Positions 24,225-26,633 of a stretch of 30,114 bases of DNA are shown here, piece by piece (the stretch's first letter is position 1; the number at the start of each line of letters is the position of its first letter). The translations under genes and the position numbers were made by a program. Origin of the DNA: Methanobacteriaceae archaeon (lineage in GTDB: Archaea > Methanobacteriota > Methanobacteria > Methanobacteriales > Methanobacteriaceae); contig PWMT01000068.1 of NCBI GenBank assembly GCA_003558085.1, forward strand, positions 1 to 30,114, given 5' to 3'. The notes below the pieces were generated by a model, which did not search any database, had not been told where the DNA came from, and was given only the letters and a program-made list of their open reading frames with translations.

Positions 24225-25205
24225 TTAAAATTCTTTTCTCTCCCTAACGAATTTAGGAACCGCTTCTTTTAATGGATCAAAATTTTCTATATTATCAACC
24301 TTCATGCATTTCATAGAAACTTTGGAGTGTAGCGAAGTAGGTAATCTCAGTATTCTTTTAAGATCAATGGAAACCTTAGCATCCACCAGGCCCAGGTTAA
24401 GTTTAGCTATTCCATCCACTAAATTTTTATATCTACGAGGTCCGATTTTATTTTTAAACAAACCCCACTTTTCCTCTTCTAGAAAATGGCGATTTTGCAT
24501 AACATCCTTAAGCAGTCTGGGATTAATCTGGTCAATTTCTTCTTCCCCGGTAAGATGAAGGATGATATATTTTATTCTATCTGTAAAAACAGCTGAATAT
24601 CCCACTGGTATGGTGAAATGTTCCAATTCATAAGGTTTTTGTCCAGGAAGTGATTCCATATAGTATCTGTTTTTAGGATTAAATGCACCAGATACGTATT
24701 TAAGTATCTGGGATCTTACTTCACTATTTAACTGCATTGCTGCTGGATCAAGGACACGTATATGATATCCCCTACCAGAATAAATCACATGAACATTTTT
24801 TAATCCTAAATCTTCTTTTAAAACATCTATTATGCTCCCGACAATTTGGAGAGCTTCATCTAAACAAATTTCACATACACTATCACAATTACAGGATCTT
24901 ACCGGTAAATCCTTTGCATCAACATCAAAGACTAGTTCAGATTTTAACCATTCCCCTCTCTTCCAGGGTTTCTTATAGAAAGCTACAGAGGAGTAAACCG
25001 CAAAAGGTGCACGATATCTTAAAAATTTTCTTAACAGATCAGAATTCTTGAAAACACGATAACGATCATTAGGACCTCTACCTAGATGATCGAAACCAAA
25101 TTCTCTTTTATTCAAATCCGCTATTATAAAGTCTGGTAGATCCTGAATTTTCCATTCTTCCCGGTAGTATCTTTGACGTTCTTCTAAAGTAGCTGATTCA
25201 AATAT
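24225..25205 (-). CDS. priS: DNA primase catalytic (small) subunit; frame extended to an ATA codon at 25205 (326 aa)
   Basis: REFGFD, YSSVAFY, ELVFDVD, Zn motif CNC...CEIC, YSGRGYH, DLKRILRLPTSLH. The frame stays open 30 codons upstream of the tracked TTG (25115) to ATA, with GGTGA 5 nt upstream and an in-frame TAA immediately before. Confidence 0.93.
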   Translation of the reverse strand: MFESATLEERQRYYREEWKIQDLPDFIIADLNKREFGFDHLGRGPNDRYRVFKNSDLLRKFLRYRAPFAVYSSVAFYKKPWKRGEWLKSELVFDVDAKDLPVRSCNCDSVCEICLDEALQIVGSIIDVLKEDLGLKNVHVIYSGRGYHIRVLDPAAMQLNSEVRSQILKYVSGAFNPKNRYYMESLPGQKPYELEHFTIPVGYSAVFTDRIKYIILHLTGEEEIDQINPRLLKDVMQNRHFLEEEKWGLFKNKIGPRRYKNLVDGIAKLNLGLVDAKVSIDLKRILRLPTSLHSKVSMKCMKVDNIENFDPLKEAVPKFVRERKEF

Positions 25206-25289
25206 TTAAATCACCTGCAGTTATTACATCTAATAAGGGCTAATTTAATTTTGATAGTTAAGGGGGGTGAGCTTAACTTAACCTTATTT

Positions 25290-26633
25290 CTAATTACCTT
25301 CACTTTTTTTAGTATTTTCAGTCTGCTGATTGGTCATTGATTGTTTCATTAACCATTTTTTTAAATTATAATAAGATAGAGGATTACCTATTTTTTTACA
25401 ATTCTCATCTGGTTGGCATAATACTGGTAAGTGTATCTTGATTTTTTCACAGCTCATAGGCGTGTACCATTTACTTTCACCTTCTTTATCCAGTTCAGGG
25501 GTTTCATGTACACCGAAACCAAGTTTGGCGGTTATATTCAACTTTTCCTGGGGGTCATCCTCAAATAGGGGAGGGTTACAATTCTGCGCAGCCTCATAAA
25601 TTAAAGGCAATATTTCTGTAGTGGTTATTTTCAGCCCTTTATCTAGATCTGAAATTTTAAGATCAGCCTTATTTTTAAAAACTGATGGATATAATCTAGC
25701 GTAAGACAGAAAGGAAGTCATTAGAAGTACTATGGCATCGTTACGATTTCCAGCACTTACACCATCCATTGTATTTTGTATACAGGGTGGGAAAGCTTCA
25801 ACTTGGAATTTAGAAGCTTTAATATCACCTCCCTGATTTGAAGAATAGGAGTAGTTCTCAGTTAATGTTTTTGAAATTTTAGCTCCTATTTGAATTAAAG
25901 AAGGATGGGCTTCAACGTTGGAGACCATTTCATGCACTTTGGAGATATAATTTTCCGTATTTTGCATTATCATACGGTTAACAATAAGTTCTTTAATTTT
26001 ATCCCCGATTAAAATATCATACATTTTCTCTGGAATCCTATCTTCAATTTTATGCTCAAATCTATCTAAAAAATCTTTTTTATCCAGTATAATCTGTCCC
26101 TTATCAATTATAAGATGGCTAAGATTGATTTTTTTGGATCCTAATAATTCAGCTAAAGATGTCCAGTGGAGATTATCCGCAGCAATTAACTGGTTAAGTA
26201 ACTTTGCGATGGTTTCCTCCCGTAAAGTTTTACTCAGAGTTTCTAAACGTTCCTGGATTAGTTGGCCCTGGGATTCAATGAATACTCTGCTTTCTCTTGA
26301 ATTAGGATTAAAATTAATACCAATAGATTGGGCAGCAATATAAAAAGAAATAACATCATAGATTTCTAATTCAGGGTTCAATAAAAAGGCATAATCATTG
26401 TGCTCATATTCTTTATCATATTTTTTTCTTACATACCATTCTACTCTTTTTAAGGTATATTCTGCCAAAGATTTAGGAATATAGGAATCATTAGAAATAT
26501 TCTGAGATTTAGTATGAATCACTAAATCCATTAAATCTTTATCTTCAAGGAATAAATTTTCTAAAGAACCCTGCTGTCTGACTATCTGTTCTCCTTCATC
26601 AGAAAGAGGATATAAAAAATATGAACTAACCAT
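25290..26633 (-). CDS. priL: DNA primase large (regulatory) subunit
   Basis: FPPCI, GNRN, YTPMSCEKIK...LCQPDENC..IGNPLSYY (Fe-S cysteines); adjacent to priS. Confidence 0.92.
   Translation of the reverse strand: MVSSYFLYPLSDEGEQIVRQQGSLENLFLEDKDLMDLVIHTKSQNISNDSYIPKSLAEYTLKRVEWYVRKKYDKEYEHNDYAFLLNPELEIYDVISFYIAAQSIGINFNPNSRESRVFIESQGQLIQERLETLSKTLREETIAKLLNQLIAADNLHWTSLAELLGSKKINLSHLIIDKGQIILDKKDFLDRFEHKIEDRIPEKMYDILIGDKIKELIVNRMIMQNTENYISKVHEMVSNVEAHPSLIQIGAKISKTLTENYSYSSNQGGDIKASKFQVEAFPPCIQNTMDGVSAGNRNDAIVLLMTSFLSYARLYPSVFKNKADLKISDLDKGLKITTTEILPLIYEAAQNCNPPLFEDDPQEKLNITAKLGFGVHETPELDKEGESKWYTPMSCEKIKIHLPVLCQPDENCKKIGNPLSYYNLKKWLMKQSMTNQQTENTKKSEGN

Follow-up and report, generated by a model that had tools for sequence, protein, structure and literature searches.

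The gene priS, which encodes the primase catalytic subunit, is predicted to begin at an ATA codon in a member of the Methanobacteriaceae. It lies on a stretch of 30,114 nucleotides (nt), positions 1 to 30,114 of contig PWMT01000068.1 in assembly GCA_003558085.1. We call this whole stretch the window; it is contig C73 of an assembly in 175 contigs, and the genome to which it belongs is referred to as G000. We put the probability that translation of priS starts at ATA 25205, behind a Shine-Dalgarno (SD) sequence with the core GGTGA, at roughly 85%. A preliminary description of this DNA had proposed the same start, and the orthologues of the gene, the solved chains of its product and the aligned codons of an outgroup all agree with it. 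Throughout, ATH (AUH in the transcript) stands for ATA, ATT or ATC (AUA, AUU or AUC), and ATG, GTG and TTG are called canonical. The start region comprises the following elements.

24225..25205, minus strand: full coding sequence of priS, 326 codons and the stop.
25210..25216, minus strand: Shine-Dalgarno sequence AGGTGAT, 4 nt before ATA (5 nt counted from GGTGA).
25206..25208, minus strand: in-frame TAA stop that adjoins ATA; TGA stands at the same place in the same-genus loci L003-L005.
25203..25205, minus strand: ATA, the proposed initiation codon of priS, backed by the alignment of relatives and by contigs of two samples.
25116..25202, minus strand: codons 2-30, the conserved PriS N-terminus (FESATLEERQRYYREEWKIQDLPDFIIAD), upstream of any canonical start.
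25113..25115, minus strand: TTG, codon 31 (Leu), where the automatic gene call P0001 (296 aa) and the mechanical ORF list both begin; rejected as the start.

Read along the minus strand, the region runs ...ctgcAGGTGAT-T-TAA-ATA-TTT-GAA-TCA-GCT-ACT-TTA-GAA-GAA-CGT... The frame opened by ATA translates to IFESATLEERQRYYREEWKIQDLPDFIIADLNKREFGFD and stays open for 326 codons, to a stop at 24227-24225. After the TAA and before the frame reaches the conserved REFGFD block, the TTG at 25115-25113 is the sole in-frame ATG, GTG or TTG, and no SD-like word stands in front of it. A further in-frame GTG at 25214 sits within the SD word itself and reaches the TAA after one codon; it cannot be the start because the TAA closes the frame. 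The out-of-frame TTG at 25201 was also considered and rejected, as it meets a stop after five codons. The preliminary description was exact on this arrangement, in which ATA follows an in-frame TAA with no canonical codon before TTG 25115, GGTGA stands 5 nt ahead of ATA and TTG 25115 has no comparable SD upstream. The spacing it reported falls within the genome-wide peak: where GGTGA precedes an ATG that opens an open reading frame (ORF) of at least 100 codons in G000, the number of intervening nucleotides peaks at 4 (106 sites) and 5 (40 sites), and priS has 5.

The product of this frame is recognizable as PriS over nearly its whole length. It scores 313.5 bits against TIGR00335, the PriS equivalog (cut-off 143.5), over residues 9-323, and 57.5 bits (2.9e-15) against PF01896 (cut-off 26.8). 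Residues 4-323 of the query align with residues 6-333 of the chain in PDB 9f26_A at 5.3e-73, and LVFDVDAKDLP in the window protein falls on LVFDIDAKDLP of that chain, the acidic FDxDAKD block that we take to be catalytic. The gene is present in one copy in G000.

The position at which coding begins was sought in the family as a whole, with the codon aligned to the window's ATA counted as position 1. Fifty-six loci have ATH, ATG or TTG at position 1. In these, A is the first base of the codon at 55 loci and T the second at every one, and the third base has an entropy of 1.78 bits. From this codon on, third positions are variable and first and second positions are conserved; the conserved pattern past the start reads TT[T/C], then GC. 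A[CG]., with G-A at codon 9 and TA. TA. thereafter. The 24 bases upstream of position 1 have no codon periodicity in the same 56 loci. Over codons 2-30, the window and six relatives are separated by 7-10 synonymous and 7-9 non-synonymous differences, and codon 31 in those six is TTA, CTG or CTT. In the alignments to the solved Thermococcales PriS chains 9f26, 1v33 and 1g71, the match begins at residue 4 of the query and residue 6 of the chain. In an outgroup phylum, sampled at 30 loci, conservation extends to the N-terminus (MF.EAT.EER..YY), and the aligned codon is ATG in 12, GTG in 4 and TTG in 2 (18 of the 30 canonical). Most of the remaining outgroup loci have a canonical start 3-9 nt upstream; at L135 the aligned codon is ATA, and a GTG stands at -3. 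Because periodicity, solved chains and outgroup codons converge there, position 1 is, on this comparative reading, the translation start of the family. The earlier statement that a conserved N-terminal segment would be lost with TTG as the start was correct.

The 326-residue PriS query found matches in 40 of 41 relatives and in 80 of 81 genomes of the phylum, which the release represents by this class only; G007 gave no match to this query in either genome search. The start region was read in 64 loci, made up of the window, 29 loci from the search of relatives, 9 loci added separately and 25 from the phylum search. The codon aligned to residue 1 is ATH in 29 of them (ATT in 14 loci, ATA in 8 and ATC in 7), ATG in 26, TTG in 1 and some other codon in 8. 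These last eight have ATG, GTG or TTG 3-15 nt upstream, with slightly longer N-termini. One heavily sampled genus, g5, supplies 16 of the 26 ATG loci. By a tally from the genus columns, ATH is found in 16 of 28 genera and in three families, f1, f2 and f3. The three other genomes of the window's own genus read aGGTGAT-T-TGA-ATT-TTT-GAA, which is the layout of the window with another stop and another third base. The preliminary description had named an alignment of the priS 5' region across Methanobacteriales as the way to judge its proposal, with ATG in all close relatives as the pattern that would speak for a private mutation; the aligned codon is ATH in 29 of the 64 loci, and the three same-genus genomes carry ATT.

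Canonical alternatives to ATH are distributed unevenly. Eleven of the 29 ATH loci (L002-5, L009, L011, L022, L027, L034, L037 and L038) contain no canonical codon in frame anywhere between the upstream stop and codon 16. At six more the sole in-frame canonical alternative is far upstream (-63 or -102 nt). GTG stands at -9 inside the SD in ten, one of which (L006) also has TTG at -3, and the remaining cases are L045, with ATG at -3, and L018, with ATG at -18 and -102. At 27 of the 29 ATH loci an SD of 5 nt or more is present at an aligned spacing of 7-9, versus 6 of the 26 ATG loci, a contrast that is a description and not an independent test, because the loci are related. In genus g5 (L041, L043-L044, L047-L048, L051-L056, L058, L060-L061, L063 and L065), priS has ATG, no SD and, about 25 nt upstream, a TTTAAA-type box. 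Its distance from priL, the gene for the primase large subunit, is at least 600 nt at 14 of these 16 loci, and the other two, L060 and L061, contain no priL. The priS messenger RNA (mRNA) of g5 looks leaderless, unlike that of the SD-led ATH lineages, and lineages may have switched between SD-led ATH and leaderless ATG.

Logan contigs of two samples (X1 record 3; X3 records 8 and 9) carry the base of the window at 25203. Record 3 of X1 has 0 differences from the window. Record 8 of X3 comes from a strain variant, with a single difference at 25167 (G>A) that is synonymous (TAC>TAT, codon 13). X1 may be the sample from which the window was assembled, and the variant contig of X3 is therefore the more independent witness. 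Contigs of run X4 leave 25193-25218 uncovered, and RNA run X15 yielded no contig on the priS stretch. The preliminary description had advised a look at the reads over 25203 and had kept two fallbacks in reserve. Through the Logan contigs, ATA is retained in both samples and no C appears at this position, and sequencing error, one of the fallbacks, is excluded by the X1 and X3 contigs, the variant strain included. The other fallback, a strain-specific change of ATG to ATA, does not fit because the same-genus relatives carry ATT, not ATG; what stands of it is that the third base (A versus T) is private.

Three other accounts of the start were weighed against ATA 25205. Initiation at TTG 25115, which would yield 296 residues and leave the upstream 30 codons as an untranslated leader, has in its favor that this is the first canonical codon in frame and that the public gene call P0001 begins there. 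We regard it as very unlikely: no SD lies upstream, relatives have TTA, CTG or CTT in its place, and L003 and L005 are without a canonical start in the 37 codons examined. Moreover, codons 2-30 evolve as coding sequence and match the N-termini of the solved PriS chains and of TIGR00335. Still harder to credit is a start at GTG 25214, from which ribosomes would either read through the TAA or terminate a two-codon mini-ORF and re-initiate at the adjacent ATA. All four genomes of the genus have GTG-ATT-TAA/TGA-ATH in frame, and an in-frame GTG occurs at -9 in 10 further ATH loci; yet a GTG at -9 is an automatic by-product of the GGTGAT SD with a 4-nt spacer, and no SD lies upstream of GTG 25214. 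Seven loci (L009, L011, L022, L027, L034, L037 and L038) keep ATH and the N-terminus without a preceding in-frame GTG, and in these seven the SD spacer differs or the SD word is absent. The least probable account of all is that ATA arose through faulty sequencing or assembly, or that a decaying gene underwent a private ATG>ATA change very recently. The fragmentation of the assembly into 175 contigs would allow for this, as would a third-base A that is private to the species where genus mates have T. Against it stand the agreement of the X1 and X3 contigs at 25203, variant strain included, the ATT directly after TGA (not ATG) in the three same-genus genomes, and an ORF that is intact, single-copy and under purifying selection.

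The history of the codon bears on why it has been kept. For the tree, the 64 PriS proteins were stripped of their first residue and analyzed in the quick mode of IQ-TREE, with the only f4 genome as the root. ATH requires 5 changes on this tree, of which well-supported branches force 4, and ATG requires 4. Within f3 all five rows carry ATH, and it is also found in the basal row of f2 and on many branches of f1. From the change counts and the spread of ATH over f1, f2 and f3, the simplest history is one in which ATH is ancestral to the order, with the root given by the single f4 genome, and was replaced by ATG three to four times with no reversal. Replacement by ATG would have taken place notably where priS split from priL and lost its SD. 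By our reading of the tree, the third base changed about 6-7 times among A, T and C and about 4 times to G.

Two views of the retention of ATH can be set against this history, and the first of them concerns why the codon was kept, not where translation starts, and overlaps with the explanation that we favor. ATH may represent neutral drift: if little priS product is needed, any AUN behind a strong SD would be enough, and no regulatory set-point would exist. We hold this to be a real possibility, short of an even chance. All four third bases occur (G in 26 loci, T in 14, A in 8 and C in 7), changes to G are not visibly rarer than those among A, T and C as we read the tree, and a private ATC start in hacA of G000, where 22 of 22 orthologues have ATG, indicates that such changes arise and are tolerated. 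Set against drift, ATH persists in three families whose PriS proteins are about 40% different, and ATG should have become fixed if it were even slightly favored. The second view, which we consider unlikely, is that AUH constitutes a regular, selectable third start tier in Methanobacteriales and that the AUH of priS has been kept since the ancestor of the order because the synthesis of PriS has to be throttled in comparison with that of PriL.

Several points weigh against initiation at ATA 25205, or against a tuned role for it, and should be taken together. The assignment of the start comes from sequence data. At 10 of the 29 ATH loci, all in other genomes, the GTG 9 nt upstream is a candidate start; in the window and its genus a start at the GTG in the SD is ruled out because a stop codon intervenes. 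The survey leaves out the start codons of 30 further genomes matched in the phylum search, and the SD calls presuppose an assumed anti-SD sequence. The pattern of third-base substitutions alone shows no selection against ATG, and the persistence of ATH could reflect weak selection with AT-biased mutation, not tuned low expression.

In the mechanism that we propose for initiation at ATA 25205, the AGGUGAU SD would anchor the 30S subunit and thereby place AUA in the P site, where the ordinary initiator Met-transfer RNA (tRNA; anticodon CAU) would pair with AUA despite the third-base mismatch. The resulting protein would begin Met-Phe-Glu-Ser and comprise 326 residues. Initiation at a near-cognate codon would be weak, and little PriS would be made from the priL-priS unit. 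If initiation is indeed inefficient, PriS would therefore be made sparingly, and it is plausible that AUA keeps PriS levels low. G000 has four tRNAs with the anticodon CAT, one of which has A1 and a GGG/CCC anticodon stem and is the ordinary initiator by identity rules that we presume to hold here. A special AUH-reading initiator tRNA was entertained and rejected, as the anticodon of the initiator is the normal CAT and no tRNA suggests otherwise. An infC-like autoregulatory loop through aIF1 was likewise rejected: the gene in question is priS, which encodes no fidelity factor, and the aIF1 gene of G000 starts with ATG behind GAAGGAG.

The neighbor of priS in the window is the gene for the other primase subunit.

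25290..26633, minus strand: priL (primase large subunit), ATG start; PF04104, 5.3e-21; 84 nt upstream of priS.

Among the 29 ATH loci, 28 have priL as the gene immediately before priS, at a distance of -29 to 351 nt; at L038 the locus includes only 500 nt upstream, and no priL was seen there. Two features of the intergenic segment are recorded here as observations. A 7-bp hairpin (AGTTAAG / CTTAACT, with a C-rich 9-nt loop) is located at 25256-25278 on the minus strand, about 12 nt past the priL stop, although the gap as a whole folds no better than shuffled sequence. An A/T-rich, TATA-like stretch at about 25241-25252 would provide priS with a short-leader transcript of its own. Regulation through a hairpin that holds AUA in its loop (UGAUUUAA pairing with UUGAAUCA) was also considered and set aside, with no evidence for it in the fold of the 116-nt segment (z = -1.15; 26 of 200 shuffles equal).

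We scanned G000 for other in-frame ATH codons that stand behind an SD and precede the first canonical start by 12 codons or more. ATH accounts for 36 of the 266 sites overall; among the 18 sites whose codon usage is most gene-like, it accounts for 7. G000 probably contains about 8-10 further SD-led ATH starts, among them pheA and hacA.

L067:1-1248 (C101:54765-56012), plus strand: hacA (homoaconitase large subunit), ATC behind GAGGTG; NF040615 position 2 = residue 2.
L069:4-840 (C165:30409-31245), minus strand: pheA (prephenate dehydratase), ATT behind AGGAGGT; PF00800 position 1 = residue 12.
NAD-binding oxidoreductase: ATT; PF03446 position 1 = residue 2.
DUF429 protein: ATT; profile start near the ATH codon.
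DUF356 protein: ATT; profile start near the ATH codon.
NUDIX hydrolase: ATA; aGGTGAT-TAA-ATA, a layout as in priS.
Periplasmic binding protein: ATA; profile start near the ATH codon.
Mfer335-family protein: ATT; profile start near the ATH codon.

The six genes after hacA and pheA are at loci L068, L066, L071, L073, L070 and L074, on contigs C68, C165, C140, C158, C68 and C75; in all six the family profile starts at or close to the SD-led ATT or ATA, far ahead of the first canonical codon. The next canonical start in hacA is 28 codons on. Its orthologues, including those of the same genus, have ATG in 22 of 22 cases (the 24th locus, L100, is a paralogue), and the ATC is private to G000 because all 22 have ATG. 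In pheA the next canonical start is 50 codons on. ATT is found behind GGAGGG in three same-genus genomes and, by eye, behind an SD in five other genera (L105, L111, L117, L120 and L123), the others having ATG or TTG. The pheA of L114 (G027, family f2) has ACA in the place of the relatives' ATG, with no canonical start nearby and CTG or ATA possible.

A count of openers gave a view of the genome as a whole. For ORFs of at least 100 codons with an SD of at least 6 nt, a stop no more than 12 codons upstream and no canonical start between, the opening codon in G000 is ATG in 120 cases, TTG in 27, GTG in 12, ATA in 9, ATT in 3 and ATC in 1. With the non-canonical openers limited to cases in which 10 codons or more separate them from the next canonical start, ATA and ATT together account for 10 of 38 and every other codon for at most 2; some of these ten are doubtful. 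Several candidates from the ATH scan were discarded. ThrC was rejected, as its profile begins at a canonical ATG, and a Rad50 C-terminal fragment, short ORFs on C82 and C157, and the GC-rich contigs C10 and C111 were false positives. Two of these regions have features of their own. The 700-codon frame at L076 (C75:19589-21691, minus strand) is matched by Rad50 profiles only from about position 190, and this Rad50 gene may be split, frameshifted, or beginning upstream in another frame. Contigs C10 (2257-2583) and C111 (3996-5840) are far more G+C-rich than the rest of the assembly and may be contaminants in the bin.

Starts of this kind have counterparts in bacteria. SD-led AUU, AUA and AUC starts are found there, as in infC and pcnB of Escherichia coli, where weak initiation by the ordinary initiator tRNA is expected, and ATT, ATC and ATA are among the starts in NCBI translation table 11. 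Like infC and pcnB, priS has an AUH at normal SD distance that is the sole possible start of a conserved housekeeping protein and is itself retained in relatives. Unlike these bacterial cases, start selection is carried out in archaea by aIF1, aIF1A and aIF2, not by IF3. The feedback logic of infC is also not apparent for priS, as aIF1 has a normal ATG and SD, and whereas the bacterial AUU is fixed, the third base of priS drifts among A, T and C.

Within archaea, the start codons named in passages of a 2020 review of initiation are AUG, GUG and UUG only (PMC7531240), and aIF1 is described as discriminating against non-canonical starts in Sulfolobus (PMC6237735). From that discrimination, weak use of AUA would be expected in priS. 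The same paper gives the model initiation site of the aEF1A mRNA of Pyrococcus abyssi, GGAGGUGAU-UUAA-AUG, from which the window site AGGTGAT-TTAA-ATA differs at its final position alone (PMC6237735). Both sites read GGUGAU-UUAA-AU through SD, spacer and the two opening bases of the start codon, whereas the third start base is G in P. abyssi and A in the window priS (PMC6237735). A literature search, with subscription journals outside its coverage, uncovered no report of priS starting at a codon other than AUG, or of AUH starts in Methanobacteriales.

Public annotation has already taken up part of this. The NCBI/RefSeq PriS models of Methanobacterium describe the same protein with the same N-terminus and imply ATT at the orthologous codon. 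RJS48452.1 and WP_211534299.1, from Methanobacterium relatives (326 aa), begin MFEAASLEER, which corresponds to the ATT reading, and WP_248612511.1 (326 aa) begins MFEASTLEER. Other sources carry 307-, 296- or 253-residue models of the same PriS cluster. An ATT start of priS is thus already implicit in annotation, since NCBI records begin there; these models reflect an annotation decision, for which we found no published discussion. As read from the alignments, priS is a deeply conserved archaeal case of an SD-led, near-cognate AUH start. It extends known biology and introduces no new mechanism, because starts of this kind are known in bacteria and have been annotated by NCBI in relatives.

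There is a practical consequence for gene models. Callers limited to ATG, GTG and TTG truncate PriS in this clade, so that the catalytic domain loses its N-terminal part, or alternatively extend PriS into the SD. The same callers mis-model several other genes of G000, among them pheA, hacA, the NUDIX hydrolase and the NAD-binding oxidoreductase. With regard to function, the codon may throttle the supply of PriS or may be tolerated drift. If AUH is a third start tier, it would open about 0.5-1% of genes in G000, and perhaps 5% of its strong-SD starts, and the supply of primase would be sensitive to start proofreading by aIF1, which would couple replication capacity to the state of translation. 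The AUH of priS, which an essential replication gene retains behind a strong SD over three families, is a natural substrate for the study of how aIF1, aIF1A and aIF2 handle third-base mismatches, and the primase operon offers a chance to ask whether weak starts set the ratios of subunits.

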